This document shows positions 29,264-55,293 of a stretch of DNA of 55,293 nt, one piece after another. Origin of the DNA: a virus (Duplodnaviria > Caudoviricetes); IMG/VR virus record IMGVR_UViG_3300012940_000003, positions 1 to 55,293 of that record; one strand, 5' to 3'. Both the position numbers and the translations under genes were made by a program. Under the pieces are notes generated by a model. That model ran no database searches and had not been told where the DNA came from. It was given only the letters and a program-made list of their open reading frames with translations. Position 1 is the stretch's first letter; every line of letters starts with the position of its first letter.

Positions 29264-29339
29264 ACCGAGCCCCCCCCCATCGCCAGCCGGTGGGGGCTTT
29301 CGCACGCCCAGGTGCGCGCGGCCGGACACACCATGTGAC

Positions 29340-38245: not shown

Positions 38246-38962
38246 ATGGCGAAGACCAGCGGGCTCGGCGATAACGCCTACGTGGACGGGTTCGACCTGT
38301 CCGGCGACATCCAGGGCCTGGACAGCATTCACGGCGGCCCGGCCGCGCTCGACTTCACGACGATCGACCGGTCCGCGATGGAACGGCAGGGCGGCATCCG
38401 GGACGGCGGCATCAGCTTCACCTCGTTCTTCAACGCGGACCGGGCTCACCCGGTCCTCGACGACCTGCCGACGATCGACCGACTCGTGACGTACCTGCGT
38501 GGTACGGCGGCCGGCTCGCCAGCGGCCTGCTGCATCGGGAAGCAGATCGGCTACGACCCCACGCGGGCGGACGACGGCGCGCTGACGCTGAAGACGGAAG
38601 CGCAGGCCAACCAGTTCGGCCTGGAGTGGGGCGTCCAGATCGACGGCGGTAAGCGTACGGACACGGCGGCCACCGACGGTGATGGTCTCGACCAGGCGGC
38701 GCAGACGACCTTCGGCGCGCAGGCGTACCTGCACGTCTTCTCCTTCACCGGCACCTCGTGCACGGTCAGCATCGAGGACTCGGCGGACGACTCGACGTAC
38801 GCCGCGCTGATCGACTTCACCGCCGCCACCGGCCCCACCAGCGAGCGCAAGGCGGTGACCGGCACGGTCGACCGGTACGTCCGCGTCTCCACCAGCGGGA
38901 CGTTCACGGAGTGCACGTTCGCCGTGGTGTTCGTCCGCAACCAGGTGGCGGTGAAGTTCTGA
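38246..38962 (+). CDS. Tail tube-like protein 1 with a C-terminal beta domain
   Basis: MAKTSGLG...DLSGDI...AMER..G..DG. Confidence 0.65.
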   Translation: MAKTSGLGDNAYVDGFDLSGDIQGLDSIHGGPAALDFTTIDRSAMERQGGIRDGGISFTSFFNADRAHPVLDDLPTIDRLVTYLRGTAAGSPAACCIGKQIGYDPTRADDGALTLKTEAQANQFGLEWGVQIDGGKRTDTAATDGDGLDQAAQTTFGAQAYLHVFSFTGTSCTVSIEDSADDSTYAALIDFTAATGPTSERKAVTGTVDRYVRVSTSGTFTECTFAVVFVRNQVAVKF

Positions 38963-39402
38963 TGCAGCGGCTCACGAGGATCGAACCGGCCGGCCCGGCA
39001 TCGGCGTACCAGACGTTCGCCGTCCGCCGCCGCCCGGACACGACGGTCAAGGCCGCGTGCCGGGACGTGGGCTGCCTGGCGTGGCGGCACGGCTGGGAAT
39101 CGAAGGTCGACGAGACCACCCAGCTCGGCCAGGCGCAGGCCGCCTACATCCGGCAGCAGTCGGGGCGCACATTCACCGAGCAGCGGGACGGCGCCGGCCT
39201 GACGGTGTTCCGGTTCGAGCCGGGCCAGCGCTGTTTCGCCGACCACCAGACCATCCCCGAGACCTGGATCGTCCGGTCCGGGGACTGGCGTACGCCGTTC
39301 GGCGAGCGACGCCTGATCCGCCACCACACCAACGGCGCCGACTGGGCCGAGGACTTCGGCGAGCACACCGAACGGCTCGCCGACCAGAAACGGAAGGGAT
39401 AG
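38962..39402 (+). CDS. Hypothetical tail-region protein
   Basis: TGATG-coupled; C...GC..W..GW motif. Confidence 0.7.
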   Translation: MQRLTRIEPAGPASAYQTFAVRRRPDTTVKAACRDVGCLAWRHGWESKVDETTQLGQAQAAYIRQQSGRTFTEQRDGAGLTVFRFEPGQRCFADHQTIPETWIVRSGDWRTPFGERRLIRHHTNGADWAEDFGEHTERLADQKRKG

Positions 39403-39406
39403 GGCC

Positions 39407-39826
39407 ATGGCCAAGACGAGCGGCCTCGGGTCCGCGGTGACCCTCGACGACTCCAGCGGCACGCCGCAGACCATCAGCAACGACATCACCAACTGGGAGT
39501 GCAGCACCCCGAGGGCCGTGCAGGAGGTGACCGGCCTGGACAAGTACGCGATGGAGCGGCTCCTGCTCCTGGCCGACTTCAGCGTGACGTTGAACGGGAT
39601 CTTCAACGCCGCCGCGGGCAAGAGCCACGCAGTGCTGTCCGACGTCACCAGCACCGGGGTGCTGCGCACGCTGAAGCTGCAGCCCACCGCGAACGCGAAC
39701 CCGTTCTTGTCCGTCGAGACGTTGTTCACCGACTACCAGGTCACCCGCGCCGACTCCGGAGAGCTGACCTGGCAGAGCCCGGGCGTGCTCGCCGACGGCA
39801 CGGTGCCGGCCTGGACCAACAGCTAA
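39407..39826 (+). CDS. Major tail (tube) protein 2
   Basis: MAKTSGLG...ISNDI...AMERL...; directly upstream of the chaperone and TMP. Confidence 0.7.
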   Translation: MAKTSGLGSAVTLDDSSGTPQTISNDITNWECSTPRAVQEVTGLDKYAMERLLLLADFSVTLNGIFNAAAGKSHAVLSDVTSTGVLRTLKLQPTANANPFLSVETLFTDYQVTRADSGELTWQSPGVLADGTVPAWTNS

Positions 39827-39857
39827 CTATTTCTACGGGGACAAAGGTCATAACGTT

Positions 39858-40295
39858 ATGGGCTTTCGACGCAACAAGACGTACGCCTTGCGCTGGGCCG
39901 ACGGCACCGAGTTCGCCGGCCTGGAGGTCGAGGCGCGGCCGTTGCCGATCGGCGCCATGGACAAGTTCGGGCCGCTCATCGCGCTGAAGGACCGCGGCGA
40001 CGACTTCGGCCCCGAGGACATGGACGCCATCACCGGCATGTTCCAGGACTTCGCGGCCGACGCCCTCGTGTCCTGGAACTTCGAGGACGACGAGGGCGAC
40101 GTCCCGCCCACCCCCGAGGGCATGCGCCGGGTCGACCTGGAGATGGGCCTCGCGATCATCACCGAATGGTTCACCGCGGTGACCGGGGTGTCCGAGAACT
40201 CCGACGGAGACCTGGGAAAAGGCTCCGAGCCTGGCGCGAGCTCGCCGGCGGTGTCCATTCCGATGGAACCCCTGTCCGAAAGCCCCCCGAGCTAG
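39858..40295 (+). CDS. Tail assembly chaperone (G)
   Basis: LVSWNFED..G..VP motif; upstream of the TMP. Confidence 0.8.
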   Translation: MGFRRNKTYALRWADGTEFAGLEVEARPLPIGAMDKFGPLIALKDRGDDFGPEDMDAITGMFQDFAADALVSWNFEDDEGDVPPTPEGMRRVDLEMGLAIITEWFTAVTGVSENSDGDLGKGSEPGASSPAVSIPMEPLSESPPS

Positions 40296-40441
40296 ACGAG
40301 GCCGACCTGGTCCTTGGCCTGTGCGACCGCTTCCACAAGCTCCCCAGCGAGATCTACGCCGAGGGCGCTGACCTGCTCCGACTGATCACGATCCAGAACC
40401 TCGGGACCCCCGAGCCGGAAGGTGGTGGTGACGATGGCTAA
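40214..40441 (+). CDS. -1 frameshift extension of the tail assembly chaperone (GT)
   Basis: G-GGA-AAA slippery site at 40214-40220; -1 frame is open to 40441 (LCDRFHKLPSEI). Confidence 0.8.
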   Translation, partial: GKRLRAWRELAGGVHSDGTPVRKPPELDEADLVLGLCDRFHKLPSEIYAEGADLLRLITIQNLGTPEPEGGGDDG

Positions 40442-42923
40442 CCGCATCGAGATCATCGTCTCCGCCAAGAAGGACACCGACGTCCGGAAGATCGGCGAGG
40501 AGATCAAGAAGGAGGTCACCGCCGGAGCGAGCGGCGCCGGCGACGCGATCGAGAAGGAGATCGGCGACGGCGCCCGGGACGCCGGGAAGCGCGCCGAGAC
40601 CGAGCTCGGTAACGCGGGCAGCCGGGCCGGGGGGAAGTTCTCCCGCAACTTCTCCGCCGGGACGCAGCTGCGTGACGCGCGCGGCCGATTCGCGCGAGCC
40701 GGGGCGGACATGGGCGGGGCGGCCGCGGCCGGCGCGGGCCGTGCCCTGACAGGCGGCCTCTCGCGCGCCGGTTCGCAGGCGGGCAGCGCGGCAGCGTCGG
40801 GGGTGCGGCGTTCGTTCATTGCCCGCGTCGGCGGGGTGCTCGGCTCGGTCGGGCGTCGGATCGGCCACACGTTCGGGATCCACTTCGGCAGCGCCGCCAG
40901 CGACGCCGGGCAGACCGCGGGCCGCGCCGCCACCAAGGGCTTCGCCAACGTCTTCGAGGGCGGCATCACCTCGCCGATGATCCTCATCCCGCTGATCGCA
41001 GCAGCTGCCGCCGCTGCGCCGCTGGCCGGCGCCGCGCTGGCGACCGGCGTGGTGCTGGCGTTCGGCGCGGGCCTGGGCGGGCTGGGCCTGATCGCCGCGT
41101 CCCGGCTCAAGCCGGTGAAGAAGGAGATTAAATCCTTCCACAAATTCACAGCCACCTGGCTAAAGGACATCGGTCGCCCGATGGAGGGCGCTTTTTCGTC
41201 GATGCTGTCAAATGCGCGACGCGTCCTAAATCAGTTCCGCCCCGCATTGAAGGGCGCTTTTAAGAATATCCTCGGGCCGGGACTTGAGCGATTTTTCACA
41301 AATCTTGGAACTGCATTCGCGAATTTGAAGCCAGCGATTAAGCCGATCGCGCAGGCTTTTACCGATTTGATGGATGCCCTAGGCCCGCAGCTGCCGGGGA
41401 TCTTCGAGCAGATCTCGAATGCGATCATATCCATTTCGGAGACTATTAGTGCGAATCCGGACTTGTTTGCCGGGATCATCACTGGGCTGCTGCAACTCAT
41501 CCCCCTTGCGCTGAATATCGCGGGAGCGCTGGCAAAAGCCTACGACTCGATATCCAAGTTCACCGGCACGAAGGACATGTGGCGGAACCTTTTCGACGTG
41601 CTCTCGCCGCTCGGTGCACTCCTCGATCACCTCGGCCTCGACAAGTGGGGGCCGAAAATCAAAGGATTCTTTTCGGATCTTTTCGGGGGCAGTAAGAGCA
41701 AAGGCAAGAACAAGATGTCGATGTCCCTCGACGTGAAGGACAACGCGTCGAAGGTATTCAACAAAGTGAAGGGAATAGCGTCCGGTTTCGCAAAGAAAAC
41801 GTGGCGCGCGGTCATCGGCGCGAAGAACACTGCGGGCCGGATCATCAACGCGGCGCGCCGTACGGCCGTGAATTTCGCCAAGGGCACCTACCGGGCCGCG
41901 ATGCGCGCGGTGAACCGGGCGGGCTCCGCGATCGCCGGCGCCCGGAAGCTGGCCCGGAATTTCGCCAGCGCCACGTACCGCGCGGTCATGAGGGCGGTGA
42001 ACCGGGCCGGTGGCGCAGTCGCCAGCGCGCGGGCCGCGGCGCTGCGGTTCGCCCGCGCCACGTACCGTGCCCTGTTGACCGCCAGGAATGCGGTGTGGTC
42101 CGCCGTGAACAGCGCGCTGGCGGCCGCGAGGAACTGGGCCGGGCGGGTCTTCACCGCCACCCTGCGGGTGGTCAAGAACTTCAGCCCATTCGCTCACGGC
42201 GGTGTGGTCGGGGCGAAGGCCACGGGCGGTGTCACCGCGGCCGCGACCGGCGGCGGGCGGGGCGGCACGGTGCTGGTCGGCGAGTCCGGCCCCGAGCTGC
42301 TCAACCTGCCCGGCGGGTCCCACGTCACCTCCAACCCGGACTCCAAACGCAAGCTCGCTGCCACGGGCAGCAGCAGCGCGCCGTCCAAGGGGGCGAGCAG
42401 CGGCGTGCTTCAGCGTTGGGCCGCGACCTTCGCCTCCGGCATCTCCCGGTCGAAGCTGGCGGATCGGATCGTGGACGGGCTCGGCGCCAAGCTGGACAAG
42501 CTCGGCCGGACGATCACCGGGGGCGTGTCGTCCTCGGTCCGGAAGTCCACCTCGGGCAGCGGCTCGGGACTCACCACCCTGGGCAACCCCTCGGGAAAGG
42601 CGAAGACCGGCGGCCTGACCACGCTCGGCAAGAGCGGCTCGGGACTCACCACCCTCGGCAACCCCTCGGGGAAGGCGAAGACCGGATCGTCCGGCGGGCT
42701 CGCGATCCTCGGGAAACATTCCGGTCTGACCAGCCTCGGCAACCCGTCGGGGAAGGCGAAGACCGGATCGTTGAGGACCGCCGCCACCGGTTCGTCGCCG
42801 ACCCACGTCACGGTGCAGATCGGGTCGTCCAAGCTGGCCGAGGTCGTGATCGACCCGATCCGTAAAGCGGTCCGCAGCAAGGGCGGCAACGTCCAGGCCG
42901 TCCTCGGCAGTGGGCGGGCCTGA
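40434..42923 (+). CDS. Tape measure protein
   Basis: 829 aa, Ala/Gly-rich, RDARGRF motif, hydrophobic and amphipathic repeats, FAHGG and VGESGPEL motifs. Confidence 0.88.
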   Translation: MANRIEIIVSAKKDTDVRKIGEEIKKEVTAGASGAGDAIEKEIGDGARDAGKRAETELGNAGSRAGGKFSRNFSAGTQLRDARGRFARAGADMGGAAAAGAGRALTGGLSRAGSQAGSAAASGVRRSFIARVGGVLGSVGRRIGHTFGIHFGSAASDAGQTAGRAATKGFANVFEGGITSPMILIPLIAAAAAAAPLAGAALATGVVLAFGAGLGGLGLIAASRLKPVKKEIKSFHKFTATWLKDIGRPMEGAFSSMLSNARRVLNQFRPALKGAFKNILGPGLERFFTNLGTAFANLKPAIKPIAQAFTDLMDALGPQLPGIFEQISNAIISISETISANPDLFAGIITGLLQLIPLALNIAGALAKAYDSISKFTGTKDMWRNLFDVLSPLGALLDHLGLDKWGPKIKGFFSDLFGGSKSKGKNKMSMSLDVKDNASKVFNKVKGIASGFAKKTWRAVIGAKNTAGRIINAARRTAVNFAKGTYRAAMRAVNRAGSAIAGARKLARNFASATYRAVMRAVNRAGGAVASARAAALRFARATYRALLTARNAVWSAVNSALAAARNWAGRVFTATLRVVKNFSPFAHGGVVGAKATGGVTAAATGGGRGGTVLVGESGPELLNLPGGSHVTSNPDSKRKLAATGSSSAPSKGASSGVLQRWAATFASGISRSKLADRIVDGLGAKLDKLGRTITGGVSSSVRKSTSGSGSGLTTLGNPSGKAKTGGLTTLGKSGSGLTTLGNPSGKAKTGSSGGLAILGKHSGLTSLGNPSGKAKTGSLRTAATGSSPTHVTVQIGSSKLAEVVIDPIRKAVRSKGGNVQAVLGSGRA

Positions 42924-45900
42924 TGGCGATCCAGCTGGTCGGCATCCGGTCGTCGGCATCCTCGGCGGCCGGCGCGACGTCGCGCACCGTGCCCATGCCG
43001 GACGGCTCGGACCCGGGCGACTTCGATGGGTTCGAGAGCGGGGACGTCGCGGTCCTGTTCGCCGAGGTCACCTCGTCCACGACGGCCAGCTGGTCGGCGA
43101 CGGGCTGGGACCCACCCGCCGCGTTCGATGCGGGTGCGGCCGCGCAGATCGCGGTGTCCGCCAAGGTCCTCAACTCCGGCGACACCAGCGTGACGGTGTC
43201 GCCGGGTATCGCTTCAGCGCAGGTGAACGGCCTGTCCGCCGTCGTACGCGTGTACCGCGGTGTCGACCCCGGCGAACCCCTGGACGTCGCGGCGTTCGCC
43301 GACGGCTCCGGCACGGCCACAGCGAGTGTCGCGGCCGCGTCGCTCACCACCGCCACGGACGGCGCGGTGGTGGTGGCGGCGTACGGGCAGACCACCCCGG
43401 GCGGCACCAGCTACACGAACTGGACGGCCCCGGCGGGGATGGGCAACGCCGGGAACGTGTGCAGCACGGTGGCCGCGGTGAACAACGCCGCCATCGCATC
43501 GTTCGACATGACGAAGGCGACGGCCGGTGCGACCGGCACGCTGACCGCCACGTCGCCGCAGTCCCGCGCATGGGTGTACGCCACCCTCGCGCTGAAACCG
43601 GCGCCGCCGGTGACGCCGCCCACCTTCCCGAACGCGCCGCTCGCGACCACCGTCGAGCTGCAGGTGGCCGGGGCTTGGACCGACATCACCGAGTACGTGT
43701 ACGCGCGGGACGTCGTGGAGATCCACCGCGGCCAGTCCGACGAGGCCAGCACCGCCGACCCCTCCACGCTGAACCTGACCTTGAACAACCGGGACCTGCG
43801 CTTCTCGCCGCGCGCAGCCCTGTCCCCCTGGTACGGGAAGATCGGCCGCAACAGCCCCATCCGCGTGAGCGTGGACCGGCCGGCCGCGCCGGCGACGTGG
43901 CTGGACTACACCGGCGCCCCGGACGGCACCGGCGTCAAGGCGTACGACGTGCCGGGCCTGGACATCACCGGGGACATCGACGTGCGTGTCGACGTGGCTC
44001 CCCGGTCCGGAGTGTGGCAGCAGCGGGTCGGGCTGATCAGCAAGTACACGACGGCCAGCGATCAGCGGTCGTGGCTGCTGTACCTCGACGTCACCGGCAG
44101 GCTGGGGTTCGGCTGGTCAGTGGACGGCACCAGCGGCACGTCGCACTTCATCACCAGCACGGCGGCGATCGACACCACCGCCAGCCGCTTGGCGATCAGG
44201 GCGACGCTGGACGTGAACAACGGGGCCAGCGGCTGCACCGTCACCTTCTACACCGCGCCGACGATCGACGGCCCGTGGACGCAGCTCGGCTCGGCCGTGG
44301 TCACGGCGGGCACCACCAGCATCTACGACTCGACCGCAGCCATCACCCTCGCCCGCGCCGACGGCTCCGGGCTGCGCGAGTTCAACGGCGCCTACTACGC
44401 GGTGCAGGTGCTGAACGGGATCGGCGGCACCGCGAAGGCCGACTTGGACTTCCGTACGGTCGCCGAGGGGGCCACCGGCACCAACGCCTCGCCGCTCGTC
44501 GATGACGCCGGCCTGGGCTGGGTGATCGGCGCCGCGGCCGCGGTGGTCGCCCCGGCGGGCCTGCGCTTCTGCGGCGAGGTGTCGGAGTGGCCGGCGCGCG
44601 CGGACTCGACCGGCATCGACGTGTACACGCCGGTCACCGCGTCCGGGCTGCTGCGCCGGGCGCAGCAGGGCTCGGTGCCGGTGCAGTCGACGCTGACCCG
44701 CATCCTCTCCCGGAAAGCCACGGTGCGCGCGTACTGGCCGTGTGAGGAGGGCGAGGACGCCGAGCGGATCACGTCCGGCATCGGCGGCCCGCCCATGGTC
44801 ATCTCCCGCGCGCAGCCGGGGTTCGCCGGCTACTCGGGATTCCACTGCACCCTGCCGATCCCCACGCTGAACGACAGCATGTGGCTCGGCGCGGTCCCGC
44901 CGTACAGCGACACGGGCGAGATCCAGGTCCGCTTCCTGATGAACGTGCCCTCCGACACGCAGACGGGTGATGGGCAGTCCATCGTCGCGGTCTCGACCGG
45001 CGGGAGCGCGGCCCTGTGGCACCTGTCGTACCGCACGGCCGGGGCGGGGTCGCTGCGCCTGGAAGCATTCGCCTCCGGGTCCTCGACGCCGATCTACTCC
45101 TCCGGCGACATCAACTTCGCGGTCAAGGGCAAGGACCTCCGGGTCAGCATCCTGCTCACGCAGGTCGGCTCCAACGTGCAGGCCACGATCGCGACGTACG
45201 AGATCGGCGCCGCCACCGGCCTGTTCAACACGCAGACCGCCGCCGGCACCGATATCGGCCGCGCGACCAGCATCACCGTCAACAACGGCGGCGGCATCGA
45301 CGACATCAGCATCGGACAGATCGAGGTGGACGACCGAGTCGTCAGCATCTTCGACGACCTGGACCAGGTGAAGGCGTACGCCGGTGAGACGGCCGGGCGG
45401 CGGTTCCTGCGGCTCGCCGCAGAGAACGGCCTGTACGCCAGGGTGTACGGCGACCCAGACGACACCCCGGCGATGGGGCCGCAGGACCCCGACACCGTGA
45501 TCAACCTGCTGAACCAGTGCGTCGCCACCGACGACGGGATCCTGTTCGAGCCGCGTGACCTCGTGGCACTGGCGATCCGTACGCGCGCGTCCATGCAGAA
45601 CCGGGCCGCGACGGTCACCCTCGACTACACCACCGACCTGTTCGGCGAGCTGGAACCCGTCGACGACGACCGGTACACCGCGAACGACGTCACCGTGGCC
45701 AGGTCCGGCGGATCGAGCACGCACGTCACCGACACCACCTCGGCCCTGTCCACCGCGGCCCCTCCACGCGGGGTCGGCGCCTACGTCACCGAGCTCGAGC
45801 TGTCCCTGTACCGCGACCTCGACACCATCGGCCAAGCGAGCTGGCATCTGCACCGCGGCACCGTCGACGAACCCCGCTACCCGACGCTCGGGGTGGAAAT

Positions 45901-46399
45901 GGCCCGCGACGACATCGTCGCCGACGCCACCGTCCAGGCCGGCCTGGTCGCGGTGGACATCGGCGACCGGCTCACCGTGGCCAACCCGCCGGCGTGGCTG
46001 CCGCCCGGGTCGATCGAGCAGATCGTCGGCGGGCTCACCGAGACGCTCGCCGGCTTCACCCGCACCTTCCAGTTCGCGCTGTCCCCGTACTCGCCGCTGG
46101 TCGTCGCGACGTACGACTCCGACCGGTACGACACGGCCGGGTCGTCGCTGGCGTCCGCCGTGACCAGCTCGGCGACGTCCCTGTCCGTGGCGACCAGCGC
46201 GGGCCCGGTGTGGACCACAGCGGCCGGCGACCTGCCCCTGGACATCGTCGTGGGCGGCGAGCGGATGACCGTCACCGCGATCTCCGGGGCGTCGAGCCCG
46301 CAGACCTTCACCGTCACCCGCAGCGTCGCCGGCGTGGTGAAGAGCCATGGCGCCGGTGAGGACGTGCGCCTGTACCAGCCCGCGATCCGGGCCCTGTAG
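42923..46399 (+). CDS. Large minor tail/baseplate protein with lectin-like (LamG-like) regions
   Basis: WTDIT...I.RG.SDE, L.LNNRD.RFSP and AYWPCEEG motifs; position after the TMP. Confidence 0.85.
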   Translation: MAIQLVGIRSSASSAAGATSRTVPMPDGSDPGDFDGFESGDVAVLFAEVTSSTTASWSATGWDPPAAFDAGAAAQIAVSAKVLNSGDTSVTVSPGIASAQVNGLSAVVRVYRGVDPGEPLDVAAFADGSGTATASVAAASLTTATDGAVVVAAYGQTTPGGTSYTNWTAPAGMGNAGNVCSTVAAVNNAAIASFDMTKATAGATGTLTATSPQSRAWVYATLALKPAPPVTPPTFPNAPLATTVELQVAGAWTDITEYVYARDVVEIHRGQSDEASTADPSTLNLTLNNRDLRFSPRAALSPWYGKIGRNSPIRVSVDRPAAPATWLDYTGAPDGTGVKAYDVPGLDITGDIDVRVDVAPRSGVWQQRVGLISKYTTASDQRSWLLYLDVTGRLGFGWSVDGTSGTSHFITSTAAIDTTASRLAIRATLDVNNGASGCTVTFYTAPTIDGPWTQLGSAVVTAGTTSIYDSTAAITLARADGSGLREFNGAYYAVQVLNGIGGTAKADLDFRTVAEGATGTNASPLVDDAGLGWVIGAAAAVVAPAGLRFCGEVSEWPARADSTGIDVYTPVTASGLLRRAQQGSVPVQSTLTRILSRKATVRAYWPCEEGEDAERITSGIGGPPMVISRAQPGFAGYSGFHCTLPIPTLNDSMWLGAVPPYSDTGEIQVRFLMNVPSDTQTGDGQSIVAVSTGGSAALWHLSYRTAGAGSLRLEAFASGSSTPIYSSGDINFAVKGKDLRVSILLTQVGSNVQATIATYEIGAATGLFNTQTAAGTDIGRATSITVNNGGGIDDISIGQIEVDDRVVSIFDDLDQVKAYAGETAGRRFLRLAAENGLYARVYGDPDDTPAMGPQDPDTVINLLNQCVATDDGILFEPRDLVALAIRTRASMQNRAATVTLDYTTDLFGELEPVDDDRYTANDVTVARSGGSSTHVTDTTSALSTAAPPRGVGAYVTELELSLYRDLDTIGQASWHLHRGTVDEPRYPTLGVEMARDDIVADATVQAGLVAVDIGDRLTVANPPAWLPPGSIEQIVGGLTETLAGFTRTFQFALSPYSPLVVATYDSDRYDTAGSSLASAVTSSATSLSVATSAGPVWTTAAGDLPLDIVVGGERMTVTAISGASSPQTFTVTRSVAGVVKSHGAGEDVRLYQPAIRAL

Positions 46400-46415
46400 A
46401 GGAGAGGGGGAGCTG

Positions 46416-46865
46416 ATGTCTGACCTTGCCGCCGGCACCCGCGTGCTGGCCGCCGACTGGCCCGACGCGGCGTACGCCGCGGACTCGACGGACTTCAACA
46501 ACATCACGAACACCACCTACGTGTCCGGGCCGCCGGAGCTGGGCGTGACCTTCGTAGCGCCGACCTCCGGCCGGGTGTTGCTGGGGGTGGGAGGCCAGTT
46601 CAGAGGGCCCGACCGGATCGTGCTCACCCCGCAGGTGTGGCTCGGCACCAGCGCGTCCGGAACCCTGTTCCTCCCGGCGAACCTGAATGAGCGCGCCGTC
46701 ATGTCGCCGTCGAGCGGGGCGTCCTCTGCCTACAGCCGCTTCACGCTGTTGGAGGGGTTGACCCCGTGGGCGACGTACTACGCGCGTGTCCTGCATAAAT
46801 GCCAGGCCGGGGCGGGCACGGCCGATCTCTTCGACCGCGAGATCACGGTGGTGCCGACCCCATGA
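46416..46865 (+). CDS. Minor tail/receptor-binding paralog 1
   Basis: VTFVAPTSGRVL..GG, GLTPWATYYAR, DREITVVP. Confidence 0.75.
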   Translation: MSDLAAGTRVLAADWPDAAYAADSTDFNNITNTTYVSGPPELGVTFVAPTSGRVLLGVGGQFRGPDRIVLTPQVWLGTSASGTLFLPANLNERAVMSPSSGASSAYSRFTLLEGLTPWATYYARVLHKCQAGAGTADLFDREITVVPTP

Positions 46866-47341
46866 CGATCAAGGCAGGCGCGAGGATCCGCGCCACCGAC
46901 CGGCCGGCCGCCGTGCAGGCGGAGGACCAGTCGAGCGTCGCGAACATCACCTCGACGTCCTTCATCACCGGCACCCCGGTGGTCGAGACGACGTTCACCG
47001 CGCCTCCGTCCGGTACGGTGCTCGTCTTCGTCGGCGGCGGTACCCGGGACAACTCCGGCGCCGGGAACAAGGTGAGCCTCGACTACGAGATCTACCAGGG
47101 CACCTCGGCAGCCGGGACCCTCAAGAAGAGCGCGAACGAGCAGCTGTCCGGCTACATCGGGCAGAGCGGCCTGATCGGCGGCACCGCCGGTACAGGCCTG
47201 GACTTCCACTACTTCTCCCGCGGAACGCTCGTCACCGGCCTGACCGCGGGCGCCACCCACTACGCGCGGCTCCTCTACAAGGTCAACGCGGGGAACACGT
47301 GCGACATCTCCGACCGCCAACTGATCATCATCCCGACGTGA
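46862..47341 (+). CDS. Minor tail/receptor-binding paralog 2
   Basis: TFTAPPSGTVL..GG, GLTAGATHYAR, DRQLIIIP. Confidence 0.75.
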   Translation: MTIKAGARIRATDRPAAVQAEDQSSVANITSTSFITGTPVVETTFTAPPSGTVLVFVGGGTRDNSGAGNKVSLDYEIYQGTSAAGTLKKSANEQLSGYIGQSGLIGGTAGTGLDFHYFSRGTLVTGLTAGATHYARLLYKVNAGNTCDISDRQLIIIPT

Positions 47342-47351
47342 GGGGGCAACG

Positions 47352-47801
47352 TTGACGCTGGTCAAAGGCATCGACACCCCACGCGCGGTCTGGCAGCAGT
47401 CCGTCCAAGACGTCCTGAACTTCGGCGACACCACCAACACCCCGGGGAGCCCAGAGGTCGGCGTGACCTTCCGGGCCCCGACGTCCGGCCGGGTACTGGT
47501 GATCGTCGGCGGCGGGCTGCGCGACAACGCCGGGCAGAACCGCGTGTTCTTGGGGCCGGAGGTGTACCAGGGCCCGGACACCCGAGGCACCAAGGTGGAG
47601 TCCGGGAGCTTCCACGAGTTCGTCACCTCGCCACCCGAACCCGAGGCGATGTTCGCCTCCCGCGCGACGCTGGTCACCGGACTCACCGCCGGGGAGACGT
47701 ACTACGCGCGGACGTACTACTACACGCTGAAGACGGGCGGCACGCCGAGCGCGACCAGCGACATCTTCGTCCGCGAGATCATCGTGGTGCCGGTGCCATG
47801 A
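47352..47801 (+). CDS. Minor tail/receptor-binding paralog 3
   Basis: VTFRAPTSGRVL..GG, GLTAGETYYAR, VREIIVVP; TTG start. Confidence 0.75.
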   Translation: MTLVKGIDTPRAVWQQSVQDVLNFGDTTNTPGSPEVGVTFRAPTSGRVLVIVGGGLRDNAGQNRVFLGPEVYQGPDTRGTKVESGSFHEFVTSPPEPEAMFASRATLVTGLTAGETYYARTYYYTLKTGGTPSATSDIFVREIIVVPVP

Positions 47802-48112
47802 GCAGCGACACCGAAGACCCGCAGGCGGTCGGCATCGCCCTGTCCGAGCTCAAACGCTCCGTCGACGTGGGGCTGGCCCAGATCAACGGCCAGCTCGGCA
47901 TCATCCTGCAGCGTCTCGACGCGTCCGACCGGCGCGACGACGAGCACACCCGCCGCCTGGAGGACCACGACGTACGGCTGCGCCAGGTCGAGCGGGATGC
48001 CGTCACGGAGGCGCAGCTGTCCGCCCGGTCCAAGCAGGTGATCGCCGTCGTGTCGCTGATCGTCGCGATCGCCGGCGTCGCCCTCGGCATCTTTACAGGA
48101 GTCAAGTCATGA
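47798..48112 (+). CDS. Lysis-cassette membrane protein (coiled coil plus C-terminal TM)
   Basis: Coupled to the endolysin. Confidence 0.7.
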   Translation: MSSDTEDPQAVGIALSELKRSVDVGLAQINGQLGIILQRLDASDRRDDEHTRRLEDHDVRLRQVERDAVTEAQLSARSKQVIAVVSLIVAIAGVALGIFTGVKS

Positions 48113-48981
48113 TCCACGGGATCGACGTCAGCAACTGGCAGGGCGCGTTCAACTGGGCAAGTCAGAAGATCGCGTTCGCTCTCGCCAAGGCCACCGAGGG
48201 CACCGCATACCGCGACCCGCAGTTCGCGCGGAACTGGCGGGAGATGAAGGCCCGCGGCCTGGTGCGGGGCGCGTACCACTTCGCCCACCCGGACAACTCC
48301 GTGGCGGGCGAGGCCGACCACTTCGTCTCCGTCGTGCGTGCGCAGGGCCTGCACGACGGTGACCTCCTGGCGCTCGACCTGGAGGTCGCCGACGGCCGTA
48401 CGCCGGGCCAGATCGCCGCGTTCGCGCGCGGCTGGTGCGAGCGGGTGCAGACGGCCACCGGGATCCGGCCGATCGTCTACACGTTCATCTCGTTCGCCCG
48501 CAACGGCAGCTGCTCGGGACTCGGCGGCTACCCGCTGTGGATCGCTGCCCCCTCGTACGCGGCCGGGAAGCCGCCGATGCCGCTCGGCCCCTGGAAGACG
48601 TGGGCGATCCACCAGCACACCGACAACCCGATCGACAAGAACGTCAGCCAGTTGAGCGCCGCGCAGCTGCGCGCGCTCGGACAAGGAGGAGACGACGTGG
48701 CAGCCAAGGACGTGTGGACCGAGAACATCCCGGCCGGGCCGGACTTCAAGAAGGTGTGGCCGGCCGGTACGCACCTGCGGTACCAGACGCAGCAGGGCGA
48801 CGCGCAGCTCAAGGAGCTGGCCGCCCTGCGCGCCACCCAGAACGAGCTGGTGAAGGCGCTCGGCAACCTGGCCGGGCTCGACGCCGACGGGCTGGTCGCG
48901 CGGATCGACGCGGCCGTGCGGAAGGCGCTGGAGGAGTCCACGGTCGACGTCGTCGTGCACGACGCCGACCCGACCACCTGA
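48109..48981 (+). CDS. Endolysin, glycoside hydrolase family 25
   Basis: GIDVSNWQG, KATEG, RGAYHF, LDLE, LWIA and HQHT motifs. Confidence 0.95.
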   Translation: MIHGIDVSNWQGAFNWASQKIAFALAKATEGTAYRDPQFARNWREMKARGLVRGAYHFAHPDNSVAGEADHFVSVVRAQGLHDGDLLALDLEVADGRTPGQIAAFARGWCERVQTATGIRPIVYTFISFARNGSCSGLGGYPLWIAAPSYAAGKPPMPLGPWKTWAIHQHTDNPIDKNVSQLSAAQLRALGQGGDDVAAKDVWTENIPAGPDFKKVWPAGTHLRYQTQQGDAQLKELAALRATQNELVKALGNLAGLDADGLVARIDAAVRKALEESTVDVVVHDADPTT

Positions 48982-49049
48982 CCAGGCAGAGCGCCGGACA
49001 ACATACCAGCGCATATACCACCCGCCGTGACCTGCGGAAAGAGGAGAGC

Positions 49050-49274
49050 ATGGCCCTGACCGACCGGCATCGCGCCGTCCAGGACGTGATGCGGCACTTC
49101 ACCTACGACCACCTCCGCCCCGATCTCCAGAAGGTGTCCCGCCCGGTGTGCGAGCTGGCGCACCACATGCTCGACGTCATCCCCACCGACGACCCGGAGC
49201 TGACGCGAGGGCTGCACAAGCTCCTGGAGGCCAAGGACGCGCTCGTCCGGGCCGCGATACCCGCGAAGGAGTGA
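49050..49274 (+). CDS. 74-aa helical-hairpin protein
   Basis: F.YDHL..DLQ.VS.P..ELA...ELTRGLHKLLEAKDALVRA; GAGGAG RBS. Confidence 0.8.
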   Translation: MALTDRHRAVQDVMRHFTYDHLRPDLQKVSRPVCELAHHMLDVIPTDDPELTRGLHKLLEAKDALVRAAIPAKE

Positions 49275-49519
49275 TCGTGCTTCCGTCGTTCGTCCGCACG
49301 CTCGTACCGATCATCGTCGGCGTCATCGTCGGCCAGGCCGCCCGCATAGGCCTCGACCTCGACGAGGGCCTCGTCACGGCGATCGTGACCGCGACCGCGG
49401 GCGCCGCGTATCACGCGGCCGTCCGCTGGATCGAGACGCGCTGGCCGAAGGCCGGCGTGCTGCTCGGGTACGCGCGCGCCCCGCAGTACAAGAAGCGGGA
49501 TGTCGATCTTGCCGCCTAG
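49271..49519 (+). CDS. Holin-like 2-TM protein
   Basis: SFVRTLVP...Y.A.VRW.E..WP..G.LLG....PQY. Confidence 0.75.
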   Translation: MIVLPSFVRTLVPIIVGVIVGQAARIGLDLDEGLVTAIVTATAGAAYHAAVRWIETRWPKAGVLLGYARAPQYKKRDVDLAA

Positions 49520-50186: not shown

Positions 50187-50513
50187 GTGCCACGGCCGGG
50201 GGGACCAGGCGGCAGACGGGGGCGGAGCGTCGCGCAGCAGCTCGCCGACGCACGCCGGCGCCTGACCACCGCCACCCGCCAGGCCGAAGCCGCGGCCGGC
50301 GAGCTCGAACTCATCGACCGCCGGTTCGACGCCGCCAGCGAGCGCGCCGCCGAGCTGCTCGACCAGCTCGTCGCCGCCCAGGCGGAGGAGGACCGGATCC
50401 GCAGCGAGCGGTACCGGGTACGCCGCCGGCGGGACGAGGCGGCCGCGCGCGCCGACCGGATCCGTACGGAGATCGAGCGTCTGGAAGACCGGAAGCGGCG
50501 CGGCCTGCCGTAG
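50187..50513 (+). CDS. Coiled-coil protein
   Basis: Heptad-rich; CATGAT-6-GTG leaderless-like start. Confidence 0.6.
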   Translation: MPRPGGPGGRRGRSVAQQLADARRRLTTATRQAEAAAGELELIDRRFDAASERAAELLDQLVAAQAEEDRIRSERYRVRRRRDEAAARADRIRTEIERLEDRKRRGLP

Positions 50514-50616
50514 CCCGGCGGGGGTCTACACGAGGGTCTACAGGTAGAGCATGATCCCCTACATGTAGACCCCCCACTACCCACCGGCCACCCCTCCTGA
50601 CCTGCGGTGTAGCGGG

Positions 50617-52920
50617 CTAGACCCGGCGGCCGCCCCGCTCCGCCAGGGCATCGGTGACCTGGCTACGCGTGATCCCCTGCCGGTTGCGCCTACCGCCGTC
50701 CGGGTGCTGCATGTTCATCTGCGCCGTCTCGATCCCGTACGGCTTCACTGCGGTGGCGAACAGGGTCTGGTCCCAGCCGTCGTAGTCCTCCGGCCGCAGC
50801 TCCGCCAGCCTGGCGCAGATCGTCTCCGACCACAGCCGCGTCTCGCCCTGCTCGAACACCGCCAGGACGTCGTCCAGCAGCGACGCCACCGGCCGCTCGG
50901 CCATCGGCTCTTCCCCAGCCGCCACGCCCTGAAGGGTGCCGGCCAAGACGCGCAGCTCCCGGCCGCGTACACAGATCTTCGTGATGACCGGCCCGTCCGC
51001 CATGTGCGTCCGTACGACCTGCGCACCCTTCTCGGCCAGCTCACCGTCGTCCGCCCCGAGCAGGTACCCGACGCCCTTGTGGCTGCGCTGCAAGCGGCTC
51101 GCGTCGATCCCAGCCTTGCTGGTGCCGGTGCCGAGGATCGCCTCGGACGCCTGCCATGTCATCGTCTTCAAGCCGAACCTGCTGCCAATGGCGTCCCGCA
51201 GCTTCGACGGGATCGCCTTACTGTCCGGCTTCTGCGTGGCCAAAACCAGCATGATTCCCGCCGCCGGGCCGACTTTCACCAGGTCGGTGAGCAGGTCAGC
51301 GATCAGCTTCCCGTGCTGGTCATGTTCGAGGTACCGGTGGACCTCGTCGATCGCCACCAGCTCCAACGGCATGTTCCGCCGCCTGTCCCGGGCCAGCGCG
51401 GGAGTGAGCTTCCCCTCGGGGCACAGATCGTCGGGCAGCTCCTGGAAGGCCTCGTACCGGCGGTTCATCTCCTCCACCAGCTCCTGCAGCGTGTCCACCA
51501 GGTGCTCGACCACCGCGGCCCGGATGCCGGTGCCGTACCGGTGCGCTACTTCCCGGAAGGCTTTCCAGTCGCGGCCGCCTTTGCCGTCCCAGACATACAA
51601 CCTGACGTGGGGATCCAACGCCGCTGCGGCGACCGGGAGCCTGGCAGCGAACGTCTTCCCCATCCTCGGGATGCTGCCCACCAGCATCGACGACCAGACG
51701 AGGGAGAACGCGATCGGCCGGCGGCGGGCGTCCAGGCCGAACGGAATCGGCTTCCAGAAATCGACCTGCGGCATGTCGGCCAGCGGCGTGACCGGCGGCT
51801 TCTGCCCGTACGGATCCCTGTTCGCGACCCACATCTCCACGCGCCGCGCGCTCCCCGCGTCGCCCCGTACGCGTTCGAGGAAGACGCGCACCTCGTCGAC
51901 GTCGAGGCCGGCCGCGATGTCCTCGACCTTCTTCAGCGCGTCGGCCGCCTTCTTCCCGAACGGGAGATCCACCACAGCCGACCAGCCGTCCCCGTCGCGG
52001 TGCACCGGCCGGCCCGGCGCGAACGTGATCGGCTCCGCCTCGGTGCACAGCTTCGCCGCGATGTACGCCCTGACCACCATGTCCGGGGTGAGCCGCCAGC
52101 CGCGCGGCCCCTCGATCACCGCGGCGTCGAACAGCGGCCGGTCCGGGCGGCGCCCGCACCACGCCGCCGTGAGGATCGCGCAGATGACGAGCAGGTCGAA
52201 TGCGGTGGGGACGACGAAGTAGACGACGGTCAGGGTGAGCCCGCCGACGATGATGAAGGCGATGGTGGTGAAGCCGCGGATCTTCACGCGCTCGTTCCGC
52301 TGCCGGGACAGAGCGAGGTATGTGCCGGCGTCCCCGCCACCGACTGCGCCCTTGCGCAGGGGCATGCCCTCGGCGTCGAACACCCACCTCCAGATGATCC
52401 GGACGCCGCGCCATGCGCCGCGCGGCGCGCACAGGGCGAGCCGCACCGCGTACTTCGGCGCGCGCACAAGGTGGAACGCCGCGGTGTACCCGGCCCTATC
52501 CAGGGCCCACCGCACGGCGGCACGCCACTGCGCCGGGTCCCGCATCCACGGCGGGATCACGGGTACGCGGGACTCCCGGCGCTGCCACGGCAGCACGTCC
52601 GGCTGGTCGACGACGACGCCCTCGACGACGCCGTCCGAGTCCGGCTCGGGTACGTCGGGTACGGCGGCCGGGTGCTGTACCTCGGGTGTACCCGGCTCGG
52701 TGTCGACGGCCAGCGCGGGGGCGCCTGGACGCAGCTCGATCACGTCCGCTTCGCGCTGTTCGCCGGCACAGCGCGGGTCGGAGCACGCCTGCCATACCTC
52801 AGTGTCGGAGTGCGGGAGGTACACCCCAGGGTGCACGGCGTCCTCGTCGTGTTCGAGCTCGGCGATGCGCCGATAGTCCGGTCGGTGCGGGGGTTCCCAC
52901 ATCTCCGGGACAGAGGTCAT
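50617..52920 (-). CDS. traB: FtsK/SpoIIIE-family translocase, TraB-like
   Basis: Two TM segments; GSIPRMGKT Walker A, WDGKG, EMNRRY, VAIDEV Walker B, LATQKP; C-terminal wHTH-like region. Confidence 0.88.
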   Translation of the reverse strand: MTSVPEMWEPPHRPDYRRIAELEHDEDAVHPGVYLPHSDTEVWQACSDPRCAGEQREADVIELRPGAPALAVDTEPGTPEVQHPAAVPDVPEPDSDGVVEGVVVDQPDVLPWQRRESRVPVIPPWMRDPAQWRAAVRWALDRAGYTAAFHLVRAPKYAVRLALCAPRGAWRGVRIIWRWVFDAEGMPLRKGAVGGGDAGTYLALSRQRNERVKIRGFTTIAFIIVGGLTLTVVYFVVPTAFDLLVICAILTAAWCGRRPDRPLFDAAVIEGPRGWRLTPDMVVRAYIAAKLCTEAEPITFAPGRPVHRDGDGWSAVVDLPFGKKAADALKKVEDIAAGLDVDEVRVFLERVRGDAGSARRVEMWVANRDPYGQKPPVTPLADMPQVDFWKPIPFGLDARRRPIAFSLVWSSMLVGSIPRMGKTFAARLPVAAAALDPHVRLYVWDGKGGRDWKAFREVAHRYGTGIRAAVVEHLVDTLQELVEEMNRRYEAFQELPDDLCPEGKLTPALARDRRRNMPLELVAIDEVHRYLEHDQHGKLIADLLTDLVKVGPAAGIMLVLATQKPDSKAIPSKLRDAIGSRFGLKTMTWQASEAILGTGTSKAGIDASRLQRSHKGVGYLLGADDGELAEKGAQVVRTHMADGPVITKICVRGRELRVLAGTLQGVAAGEEPMAERPVASLLDDVLAVFEQGETRLWSETICARLAELRPEDYDGWDQTLFATAVKPYGIETAQMNMQHPDGGRRNRQGITRSQVTDALAERGGRRV

Positions 52921-53005
52921 GATGGGCCTTCCCGTTCGCGGGAGACCCGGGCCTGCGGCACTGCTGTGGAAGGTGGACCCGCAGGCCCGGGGGCTTGATC
53001 ACTTC

Positions 53006-53116
53006 TTACTTCGTGGGGTGGTGGTCCGGCGACGCCGGGCACCCCGGGTTCGTGCACATAGATCCGGTCATCGGCGTGCCGCAGCTCACGCACGCCTGCC
53101 GGGGTGTATCCGTCAC
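53006..53116 (-). CDS. 36-aa Zn-ribbon miniprotein
   Basis: GGAGG RBS; CVSCG...CTNPGC. Confidence 0.5.
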   Translation of the reverse strand: MTDTPRQACVSCGTPMTGSMCTNPGCPASPDHHPTK

Positions 53117-53138
53117 GGTGACCTCCTCCGGGTACGGG

Positions 53139-53732
53139 TCAGGTACGTACCTGGGTCTCCAGGTACGCCTTGATCTGCTGCGCGCGCGGCTGACCGACGG
53201 AGAGCCGCTTGCGGATCGGCCGGACCCCCGGCACCTTGCCGCGTTCCAGCTCGGCGGCGAACTCCTGAACGGCCAGTACCTGGAGTTCGGCCAGCTTCGG
53301 GAGTACGTACTCGCCGTCGGGTACCCCCTCGTCCTCGGCGGCCAGCCGGCCCGTACGGACCACCCACATCAGCAGCTCGTACGAGCCCACCAGCGCGACG
53401 GCCGGCCACGCCGCGACCACCGCGCCGACCGGTCCGGAACCGGCGCCATGCATCACGTTGGCCGCCAGCGTGGCAACGATGCCGAGGCCCAGCAGGACGC
53501 GCGCGAGCCGCGGCACGGGCACCCGGGCGCGGGCTGCGGTGAGCATGACCATCGACGCGGCGTAGATCAGCCCGTCCACGGTGAGCGGCAGGAGGTAGGC
53601 GGTGGGGCCGTCCTCGCCGTGGGAGCGGATGACGCCGAGCGCGTGGCGGTAGCTCACGATGGCGGCGACGACGGCGACGCCGACCACCACCGCGGTGGTC
53701 GACCAGCGGACGGCCCGCTCGGTGCCGGTCAT
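53139..53732 (-). CDS. DUF2637 (SpdA-like) 4-TM protein with a C-terminal HTH
   Basis: VSYRH, LPLTVDGLI..AS, ATLAANV, AAWP.VAL.GSYELL and PGVRPIR..L.VGQPRAQ motifs. Confidence 0.88.
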   Translation of the reverse strand: MTGTERAVRWSTTAVVVGVAVVAAIVSYRHALGVIRSHGEDGPTAYLLPLTVDGLIYAASMVMLTAARARVPVPRLARVLLGLGIVATLAANVMHGAGSGPVGAVVAAWPAVALVGSYELLMWVVRTGRLAAEDEGVPDGEYVLPKLAELQVLAVQEFAAELERGKVPGVRPIRKRLSVGQPRAQQIKAYLETQVRT

Positions 53733-53902
53733 CGGCGCACCGGCCGGTCGATGTGCCGCACCCGCCAGACCGTCACCGCGGCCAGGGCGACGGGGGCGAG
53801 GACGCGCAGCCACAGAGGCGGGTACCAGGAGATGACGGCGAGCACGATGCGGGTGCCGCCGGAGATGAGCGCGGCGAGCAGCTCGGCGAGCAGCTGCATC
53901 AT
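53729..53902 (-). CDS. Small membrane protein
   Basis: Hydrophobic; ATGA-coupled to DUF2637. Confidence 0.6.
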   Translation of the reverse strand: MMQLLAELLAALISGGTRIVLAVISWYPPLWLRVLAPVALAAVTVWRVRHIDRPVRR

Positions 53903-54171
53903 GCTGGCGCCCCCGTCCGGCTGGCCGTCTTCGGCCACGCCTCAGATGGGGGCAGGCTGGGAGGATTCGTCACGGCCGACTCCTTGATCAGGAAGGGGAT
54001 CGGCCAGCCCCGGCGGGTGTTGGCGCACCCGCCGGGGCCGGACCTGTTCTGTTGTCGTCGGGGGTCCCGGGTCGGGCCCTGCCGCACCGCCCACATCCAC
54101 GAAGCCGGTGCGGCAGGGGGTCAGGCCCGCCGCGCCGCCGAGACCCCCAGTCAGGACGGCGCGGCGGGGGT

Positions 54172-54276
54172 CTACAGGAGCGCGGCCAGCACGAGCAGCA
54201 GCACGACCACGCCGAGCAGCGTGAGGCAGCCGCAGCAGCCCGGCGCGCACGAGCATGGACAGCAGCGACGGCTCAT
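54172..54276 (-). CDS. 34-aa Cys-rich membrane peptide
   Basis: MSRRCCPCSCAPGCCGCLTLLGVVVLLLVLAALL; ATGA-coupled. Confidence 0.6.
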   Translation of the reverse strand: MSRRCCPCSCAPGCCGCLTLLGVVVLLLVLAALL

Positions 54277-54782
54277 GGCATCGGCACCTTCTGCGTCGAC
54301 GGCGCCCTCGGCGTCGACGTGGCCGGTGGTGGCGTGCTGGTGTGCGCCCGGGTCGGCCGCGGCGACGCGGCGTGCGTACGGGACGGCGCCGGGCTCGGCT
54401 GCCGCGTGGCCGCGGTCGCGCGCGGCCGTGTCGCGGCCGGCGTCGGCGCGGCGTGGGACGGCGTCACCGAGGCCCCTGTGCTCGGTGCAGCCGTCCCCAC
54501 CGGGTCCGTGGCCACCGGCGCCACCGGCCCGCTGGTCGACGGCCCGGCGGTCGGATGACGGCCGACCACCGGCGGGCCGGCCACCGGGGCGGGCGGGTGG
54601 AACAGGCCCCCGCCGACGAACGCGAACGCGCCGAGCGCGAGGATCGCGGCGAGCAGCCGCGGCCGGCCAGTGATCTCGGCGATGATCCAGTTCCGCGGCC
54701 GCCGGTGCCGGTGCCGTACGGGCGAGTCCTCCGGCTCCCACCGCTCCCGCAGGTCGGGACGGGGCATGATCTCAGTCGGCAT
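54273..54782 (-). CDS. Single-TM protein with Pro/Thr/Ala-rich external tail
   Basis: TM segment LLAAILALGAFAFVGGGLF. Confidence 0.7.
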   Translation of the reverse strand: MPTEIMPRPDLRERWEPEDSPVRHRHRRPRNWIIAEITGRPRLLAAILALGAFAFVGGGLFHPPAPVAGPPVVGRHPTAGPSTSGPVAPVATDPVGTAAPSTGASVTPSHAAPTPAATRPRATAATRQPSPAPSRTHAASPRPTRAHTSTPPPATSTPRAPSTQKVPMP

Positions 54783-54960
54783 CGCGAGCCGCCTTACGCT
54801 CGGCCCGGTACGCCTCAAGGTCGTCCAGTGCACGCGAGACCAGCTCGGGGTCGGCGACGCGGAGCCAGCCGATCAGCTGGGTTCGGTCGTCGTCGTCCAG
54901 GTTGAGCGCGTGCTGCCGCTCACGCACCTCGTCTACGGTGACTCTGCGCTGCGCCCTCAC
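54772..54960 (-). CDS. Hypothetical protein
   Basis: Coupled ORF. Confidence 0.6.
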   Translation of the reverse strand: MRAQRRVTVDEVRERQHALNLDDDDRTQLIGWLRVADPELVSRALDDLEAYRAERKAARDAD

Positions 54961-55154
54961 CGCTCGGCCCTCGCTGGGGTGCAGTCGTGTGGCGTGATGA
55001 TGTCGTCGTACGCATCCAGCGGCTCACCGCAGCCATCGCACCGCGGCGTGCCCGGTAGCGGCCGGCCGCTGAGGATCACGGCGGTGATCTCCCGCCAGGC
55101 GGCGAGCGCGACGATGAGCGCCAGTGCGCCGAAGATGGACAGGAACACCGTCAT
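54957..55154 (-). CDS. Small TM protein with a CxxC..HxC motif
   Basis: MTVFLSIFGALALIVALAAW...CDGC...HDC. Confidence 0.65.
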   Translation of the reverse strand: MTVFLSIFGALALIVALAAWREITAVILSGRPLPGTPRCDGCGEPLDAYDDIITPHDCTPARAER

Positions 55155-55170
55155 CACGCACCTCCGCCCG

Positions 55171-55293
55171 TGCCGTCGAGCGCGGCCAGCGTGCGGCACT
55201 CGCTGATCGGGATCGGGTTCTCGTGACCGTCCGCGCCGCAGCCCACGCAGTTGCCGTCCGAGTCGGGGCTGTGCTCCGCCCGCACGCGGGCAA
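55171..55293. repeat. 123-bp direct terminal repeat, copy 2
   Basis: Identical to 1-123. Confidence 0.97.

Follow-up and report, generated by a model that had tools for sequence, protein, structure and literature searches.

The 55,293-nucleotide stretch of DNA analysed here, referred to as the window, is IMG/VR virus record IMGVR_UViG_3300012940_000003 and represents a complete temperate soil phage, with virion, lysis and integration genes all on one circle. On its minus strand the window contains a gene for a TraB/Tra-type FtsK/SpoIIIE translocase of double-stranded DNA (50617..52920, 767 aa; called tra below), directly followed by a cluster of short repeats resembling clt. With a probability of roughly 0.55, we read this as a TraB-type pump that was captured, together with its adjacent repeats, from an actinomycete integrative and conjugative element (AICE), and that is used to push the excised double-stranded circle into touching hyphae, beside the making of virions. 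What the sequences show directly is the genes, their intact motifs, the repeat cluster, a single phage attachment site (attP), the contiguity of the genome and the recurrence of the combination in other phages. An earlier note, made from the sequence alone, had proposed such a dual mode of transmission and placed it in a long transfer operon.

The translocase matches PF01580 (E 1.5e-6) and, as the earlier note described, represents a membrane-anchored ATPase. A hydropathy scan places two hydrophobic segments within residues 219-256, and both a Walker A motif (S416-IPRM-GKT) and a Walker B motif (D525-E526) are present. The Walker A motif begins with a serine, likewise in the relatives P0002 and L007. 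In the predicted structure the motor adopts the FtsK fold (Foldseek E 1.8e-14), and the N-terminus is of low confidence. The C-terminal region, previously called winged-helix-like, is indeed predicted as three helices and a beta-wing; its top rows in the PDB are mostly winged-helix proteins at E 0.04 or weaker, none of them reaching E 0.001. This domain also resembles DUF3631/RepAM (TM-score 0.71), a match found in 14 of 43 family members. The part concerned, residues 670-767 (50617-50910), would be the DNA-recognition domain of the Tra clade and is similar to the C-terminal part of the AICE initiator RepAM. RepAM binds 8-bp repeats (PMC2440964), and the modelled likeness suggests that the Tra clade and RepAM may share a repeat-binding module.

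With TraB of plasmid pSVH1 the ATPase shares 32% identity along 414 aa (E 1e-45). In a tree of 77 motor domains, from which 40 of 117 rows were left out as near-redundant, it nests in a Tra clade sister to the TraB proteins of pSVH1 and pSG5 (SH-aLRT 97), apart from FtsK and EccC. The TraSA protein of pSAM2 and pWTY27 were not among the rows, and the outgroup includes several long branches, among them that of one FtsK row of three, which is badly cut. Judged by its motor domain, the ATPase is TraB/Tra-type and not FtsK or Ecc, a grouping that bears out the transfer-type identity first suspected for it. Relatives in cellular genomes were considered through the best 80 of 570 loci. Among these, an integrase is present at 64, a Prim-Pol, DUF3987 or RepAM at 63, and both at 57, while a virion gene occurs in none of the 80 fetched flanks. 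The closest cellular-genome relatives of the ATPase are therefore AICEs, with the nearest at 56-61% identity.

TraB binds short repeats at clt (PMC4447253, PMC3583192), and a clt-like cluster lies at 50501..50630 (unstranded) in repeat scans, directly after the tra stop codon. Here the repeat TGTAGACCC occurs three times within 51 nt, with a fourth copy at 54168-54176, which gives four exact 9-mers genome-wide against 0.11 expected. This count alone is circular, because the motif was picked from this locus, and allowing one mismatch shows no enrichment (11 against 7.0 expected). The motif class CTAG/CTAC/GTAG, taken from relatives, offers an alternative to the locus-derived repeat. Its genome-wide peak falls at the clt-like site, with 9 words per 130 nt and at most 4 elsewhere, and at least five such words lie just downstream of tra in 77 of 94 related loci, compared with 28 of 11,112 background windows. 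As a control, the repeat scan recovered five copies of GACCCGGA behind pSVH1 traB. A cluster of short repeats beside the gene, a hallmark of Tra translocases, is thus present, and 50501-50630 is predicted to be the docking site of the pump. A further word, CTGACCTGC / GCAGGTCAG or a near variant, is seen at 50597-50605, inside clt-like regions of differing repeat type. It is found in L009, L011, L013, L015, L097, L098, L222, L223 and L224, also in pSVH1 and pSG5, and is perhaps a host-factor site.

Identical ends of 123 nt in the window yield a circular unit of 55,170 bp. Contig tiling and depth came from one run holding the sequence, possibly the source sample. Positions 5283-54036 lie in a single contig of 48,754 nt at depth 51.8, and the remainder of the circle is covered from 54007 across the junction to 1953 at depth 47.4 and over 1938-5309 at 48.4; the contig of the 44-nt att core has a depth of 87.5. 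The join between the lysis genes and the ATPase (49700-50700) falls inside the long contig. The reading that assembly falsely joined a phage to a separate conjugative element draws on the use of this sole run, as contigs and not raw reads, and we find it highly improbable. The depth is even at 47-52 round the circle and one contig spans the join, and it is therefore not a chimera; neither this join nor the junction, at both of which the earlier note had foreseen a possible false join, appears chimeric. Other records, L244 and L430 among them, repeat the same layout of integrase, att, DUF2637, Tra and lysis genes, and the chimera reading is largely refuted.

The pump recurs in other phages. Scanning virus contigs with the ATPase as a single sequence gave no match, and relatives emerged with alignment-based searches. 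Two such scans gave 28 virus loci with a Tra relative; 26 of these were tested with four more found via DUF2637. A major-capsid match is present in 19 of the 30 records, and in 14 of the 16 that are near-complete. Tail or lysis genes adjoin tra in L003, L004, L007, L008, L009 and L011, as does a terminase in L012. Record L005 holds a full AICE beside a prophage, L013 and L014 look like satellites, and none of the three was counted as a fused phage. From the side of the terminase, the best 80 of 461 relatives were kept, and 32 records of at least 29 kb were searched. An FtsK-family match occurs in 11 of the 32, ten of them Tra-like and one (G027) scoring like host FtsK; Walker A is present in the nine Tra-like ATPases checked. 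In G021, G029, G031, G033, G036, G044 and G048 the Tra-like gene lies within a phage with window-like virion genes, and three of the ten are in records of 93-122 kb, distant from the matching terminase. These phage genes belong to different Tra lineages and their positions differ, with some ahead of terS, others in the early region and others, like tra of the window, between integrase and lysis. The survey thereby bears out the expected co-occurrence of terminase and Tra in many actinomycete phages, with DUF2637 not always accompanying them.

Within the window's own Tra clade, ten phage-borne proteins need five label changes on a tree of 34 rows, and a single origin of the phage-borne copies is rejected (p-AU 7.8e-5), with the labels "phage" and "AICE" being assigned by the analyst. 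In 11 pairs of virus records dN/dS is 0.11-0.42 (Nei-Gojobori, biased by high G+C). The phage-borne copies, as far as these sequences tell, are polyphyletic and under purifying selection. Prophages of the same design are present in records matching named strains, namely L429, which equals contig L491 of Nonomuraea indica, and L430, which equals contig L496 of Thermoactinospora rubra; the Streptomyces prophages L227, L228, L232 and L233 are further examples. In INPHARED (50,697 isolated-phage records) neither the ATPase nor DUF2637 found a match; phage ZL12 is included there but is too distant, and this is no proof of absence. Two other groups of virus records were seen. In L013, L014 and L428 a DUF2637-Tra pair faces a tape-measure gene, L014 also having a major capsid gene and RepAM; these are possibly capsid-forming AICE-like satellites. 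The records L226-L234 contain a pSVH1-like transfer region with GntR, Tra and ACCCGGTC-type repeats, several just upstream of the terminase, and L228, L230, L232 and L234 have an SpdB2 homologue.

The layout fits, by inference, tandem integration of a phage and an AICE at one tRNA gene, with the inner att-int-xis-rep block lost afterwards; a possible series of stages in such a fusion runs from L005 through L224 and L238 to L244 and the window. The same layout would also suit a cassette that is a mere passenger, an AICE remnant left in the prophage by tandem integration and deletion and intact only since the event is recent. In keeping with this are the AICE beside the prophage in L005, the integrase retained after Tra in L224 and L238, the frequency of defective AICEs without int or rep (PMC9513070), and a GC3 of 0.913 in tra, compared with 0.95-0.97 in the virion genes. 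However, neither an inner att relic nor a rep remnant was found in the window, and the passenger would not be recent, because the closest AICE relatives are only 56-61% identical. Relative P0002, at 84% identity overall, conserves the motor and winged-helix regions (90-95%) over the N-terminus and membrane part (60-63%), and the phage-borne pairs show purifying selection along with repeated independent capture. We accordingly consider a passenger improbable.

For a captured, working pump, we propose the following course. The integrase (Int) and excisionase (Xis) would excise the prophage from tRNA-Ala(TGC), and the phage's own O-type replicon would replace the missing AICE Rep. Membrane-anchored Tra hexamers would use their C-terminal winged helix to bind the TGTAGACCC repeats, and would drive the circle through the contact in the way described for pSVH1 TraB. 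In the recipient, the integrase would re-establish the prophage at tRNA-Ala. The DUF2637 protein and a 57-aa protein encoded next to it may aid spread within the mycelium, a role that the model does not require. These proposed steps from excision to reintegration are drawn by analogy from pSVH1, pWTY27 and AICE biology. In pSVH1, traB alone is the key transfer gene (PMC4447253), and in pWTY27 tra and clt suffice for transfer (PMC3583192). No GntR repressor was found, and it is only after circularisation that int, attP and the cassette all read in one direction. Expression may thus be coupled to excision; that excision itself switches tra on is speculative.

Several results weigh against a captured pump used for transfer. 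The ATPase scores 27.5 bits with the NCBIfam model plasmid_TraB (NF041214), for which the cut-off is 800. Theta plasmids such as pZL12 require tra and two adjacent genes (PMC3583192), and pZL12.72c/73c have no match in the window, nor do the Spd proteins of pSVH1 and pSG5. No GntR/KorSA, RepSA, Prim-Pol or RepAM was found in the window, the RepAM model having matched no control in that scan, yet having found G013 in another; a GntR gene stands beside Tra in 46 of the 80 relatives, unlike in the window. Hairpins between int and the cassette, and inside the cassette, weaken the idea of read-through from the circle. The repeat scan gave no clear cluster behind pSG5 traB or behind the phage-borne Tra genes of L243, L246 and L249. 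Between the window's tra and its AICE relatives dN/dS is 0.47-0.56, the sole comparison measured for this gene and one biased by high G+C. The absence of an FtsK match in 21 of the 32 terminase-related records means that the gene is dispensable. In L222 (9209-11706) tra looks split, a possible decay, and L432 (7245-10585) has an int-GntR-DUF2637 block without tra, which was lost or never there.

The pump could also act only within the host mycelium, moving or sorting circles across cross-walls or into spores, with no transfer between strains. TraB takes part in intramycelial spreading too, and SpdB2 homologues on actinophages have been proposed to spread phage DNA (PMC4447253). In the related phages G023, G024, G026, G035 and G043 DUF2637 occurs without Tra, and virions already provide spread between strains. 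Yet Tra and clt form the minimal unit for inter-mycelial transfer, with spreading requiring Spd proteins (PMC4447253), and none of the Spd proteins queried has a match in the window. A purely intramycelial role is on balance unlikely, though it deserves to be kept in view.

The candidate spread helper is the DUF2637 membrane protein of 197 aa (53139..53732, minus strand; E 4.5e-14). The family assignment made in the earlier note stands, and three of the four membrane segments then claimed appear in the hydropathy scan, consistent with 3-4 segments. Coupled to it is the hydrophobic 57-aa protein (53729..53902, minus), which has no homologue in 513 other loci. DUF2637 as SpdB2 was tried and rejected, as the two give no alignment (HHalign probability 5.6%). 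Close relatives of DUF2637 were seen at 89 loci, of which 16 have a Tra gene, counted with our own Tra reference set, and DUF2637 precedes tra in 15 of the best 80 AICE loci. The conserved unit, by this comparison, is tra with clt, often accompanied by DUF2637, and the DUF2637 protein is a possible spread helper.

The genes further upstream had been claimed as one Spd-like transfer operon, starting at a glycerophosphodiester phosphodiesterase (GDPD). The GDPD gene (894..1766, minus; PF03009, E 1.7e-33) encodes an N-terminal membrane segment; together with DUF2637 and the ATPase, it is confirmed by Pfam on the minus strand. It is followed by two coupled soluble hypothetical genes by hydropathy (1..897, minus; 454-897, and from 454 across the junction to 55154), of which the 147-aa product of 454-897 resembles phage proteins. 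Four coupled small genes come next (54172..55154, minus), encoding 65 aa with one membrane segment, 62 aa, a Pro-rich single-membrane protein of 169 aa by hydropathy (54273-54782, minus) and a Cys-rich membrane peptide of 34 aa; these are phage accessory genes and at most candidate transfer genes. Some of the small membrane proteins described before are thus present, and three upstream genes have no hydrophobic segment. Likewise, the coupled run from 1766 to 50617 holds for its first seven genes (1766 to 54172), whose stops and starts overlap, and is then broken by two gaps. The first, of 270 nt (53903..54171, minus), contains three strong hairpins (z -5.8) in a hairpin scan. The second spans 219 nt (52921-53138), and a 58-codon frame in it (52917-53093) has no family match and is not called a gene by the codon model. 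Neither a sigma-70 promoter nor a T-tailed terminator consensus was found in 49400-55293.

Nine small or accessory proteins were compared with the 513 loci, and 80 loci from a metagenome scan served for this check of the small genes alone. The GDPD alone matched, once and some 9 kb away from a Tra gene; none of the seven upstream genes has an equivalent next to another Tra gene, and a GDPD scan of virus contigs found no relative. Eight transfer-region proteins of pSVH1, pSG5 and pZL12 were queried with no match in the window. The GDPD operon as a transfer operon was rejected for its hairpin-rich gap, its lack of co-travel with Tra and its phage-typical 147-aa protein, and the Spd-like operon of the earlier note falls with it, given also the eight unmatched proteins, a DUF2637 unlike SpdB2 and Tra at few DUF2637 loci.

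The unit might instead be kept for some other benefit, such as mobilisation of the host chromosome from the integrated prophage, help in DNA entry, or an envelope-level block on rival elements or phages in which the GDPD and small membrane proteins would take part. The cassette lies between attP and the lysis genes, a slot for accessory genes that also contains a membrane-anchored GDPD and a number of small membrane proteins, and TraB can attach to clt-like sites on the chromosome and mobilise it (PMC3218068). Apart from the shared ATPase fold, nothing matched a defence system; the upstream genes do not accompany Tra at other loci, and the clt-like site sits in cis on the phage. We give such benefits little credence next to a pump for the phage's own circle.

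In its membership the genome stands between known groups of elements. Integrase and an att site in a tRNA gene are shared with AICEs, and an AICE-type Rep and a GntR-type Kor/TraR regulator were not found in the window, so that "phage-AICE hybrid", as the genome had been called, is too strong. With plasmid-phages the genome shares the presence of both virion genes and a Tra-like gene. Among 79 open frames there is no ParA/ParB match, and attP with integrase is found instead of plasmid partition. By gene content, the genome differs from pZL12 by being integrative and is not classed as an AICE.

The Streptomyces plasmid-phage pZL12 (phage ZL12, GQ919031) is a close parallel. Like the window, it combines virion genes with an FtsK/SpoIIIE-like gene (pZL12.71c) and has a GDPD gene after the lysis region. 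In contrast, ZL12 encodes ParA/ParB and is maintained as a plasmid, whereas the window has the tRNA-Ala attP, and pZL12.71c gives no alignment with the ATPase (E 0.14). The plasmid-phages pZL12 and pFP4 were reportedly described by Zhong in 2010 and Chen in 2012. Plasmid-phages conjugate as episomes and make infective particles (PMC4170104). AICEs with Prim-Pol/RepAM-type replicons (L017-L095, from Pseudonocardiaceae, Micromonosporaceae and Streptomyces) contain the closest Tra relatives, at 41-61% identity. They share with the window the CTAG-type repeat cluster behind tra, a tRNA-targeting tyrosine integrase and, in the 15 of 80 mentioned, the upstream DUF2637. Their order is tra-rep-xis-int, while that of the window is int-attP-...-tra, and the window differs in being 55 kb with a full virion set, without AICE Rep or GntR. 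One of them, L032 (Micromonospora rosaria), was considered as pMR2 and dropped, since L032 has Prim-Pol and the pMR2 clade is described with RepSA.

The TraB-clt-Spd systems of pSVH1 and pSG5 resemble the window in their sister Tra clade, two membrane segments and repeats directly behind the gene (by scan, in pSVH1). They differ in the repeat itself, in SpdB2, SpdB3, Spd79, Orf108 and Spd198, which are unmatched, and in the TraR-type GntR that the window lacks. The phages phiC31 and VWB are a further parallel, as integrating actinophages that have plasmid-type spread genes, putative SpdB2 homologues proposed to spread phage DNA (PMC4447253). That account concerns SpdB2 only, whereas in the window the motor is present along with a clt-like site, and no SpdB2 was detected. 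In the literature searched, which took in few subscription papers, we found no description of TraB in an integrating phage. Conjugative spread combined with virions is already published for plasmid-phages; an integrating phage with a TraB-clt unit is, on this search, the new part.

The remaining genes were read from Pfam and PHROGs profile scans of the 79 frames, and the head, tail and lysis genes are all open frames, as intact as they had been thought to be. Packaging and head genes (25519..35275, plus strand, as are all virion and lysis genes) include a likely terS starting at 25519, terL (26243-27631), portal (29701-32679), ClpP-type protease (32679-33887) and major capsid (33884-35275). 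The portal frame of 992 aa continues about 350 residues past its last family match. The tail region (38246..47801) includes two major tail genes (at 38246 and 39407), the tape measure (40422-42923), minor tail genes and a large tail protein (42923-46399). G+C dips to 0.60 at 41001-42000, within the tape-measure gene, and is about 0.71 elsewhere. Residues 897-1063 of the large tail protein form a phosphodiesterase domain (phrog_24476), the membrane-anchored GDPD being a second, separate phosphodiesterase. The two may act in teichoic-acid remodelling or receptor removal, which is our guess. The lysis region (47798..49519) converges on tra and includes a GH25 endolysin (48109-48981), small membrane proteins and a holin-like membrane protein (49277-49519).

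The genome also has what a temperate phage requires, namely integrase, attP, excisionase and a repressor pair. The attP core, read directly from the sequence, is the 3' half of tRNA-Ala(TGC) (1924..1967, plus), the sole copy in the genome. It is taken as attP because of this tRNA half and because relatives of the integrase adjoin tRNA-Ala or tRNA-Val genes. The tyrosine integrase (2103..3590, minus; phrog_1, E 2.4e-28) is read towards attP, and an excisionase-like HTH_17 protein (8677..8985, plus) is encoded downstream of a cI/cro-like pair (7806-8555). The gene of an O-like replication initiator (21296..22282, plus) contains the likely origin; four 40-nt repeats within it at 21558-21729, spaced 48, 48 and 36 nt, are likely origin iterons. 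Recombination genes are also present. The closest terminase of an isolated phage is that of Thermobifida phage P1312 (57.7%), and named relatives of the integrase and DUF2637 are mostly from Actinomadura, Nonomuraea, Nocardiopsis, Streptosporangium and Trebonia; a filamentous member of the Streptosporangiales is therefore the likely host. Beside the integrase, 4900-7734 contains a small gene, DUF6879, XRE-DUF5753 and DUF397, parts of which recur in L244, L426, L454 and L502 and in the tRNA-Ala island L347. Two unrelated Pro/Thr-rich single-membrane proteins flank attP, one at 3666-4205 and the other the 169-aa protein already described.

The proposal may reach beyond this one genome. Tentatively, and at somewhat less than even odds, a sizeable share of the integrating phages of filamentous actinomycetes may be self-conjugating, with a minimal TraB-clt unit acquired repeatedly from various AICE and plasmid lineages. 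Such a unit would be run by the phage's own excision and replication genes for non-lytic spread through and between mycelia, here switched on by excision, and such phages would be scarce among plaque-isolated phages and common in prophages and soil phages. The prediction of the docking repeat is exact to the base, and the prophages of the same design in named-strain records make the claim directly testable. If the pump works, an integrating phage could colonise neighbouring hyphae without killing the host, without a receptor and past surface-level resistance. If true, this would change the view of how lysogeny spreads in soil actinomycetes, and would blur the line between prophage and AICE.

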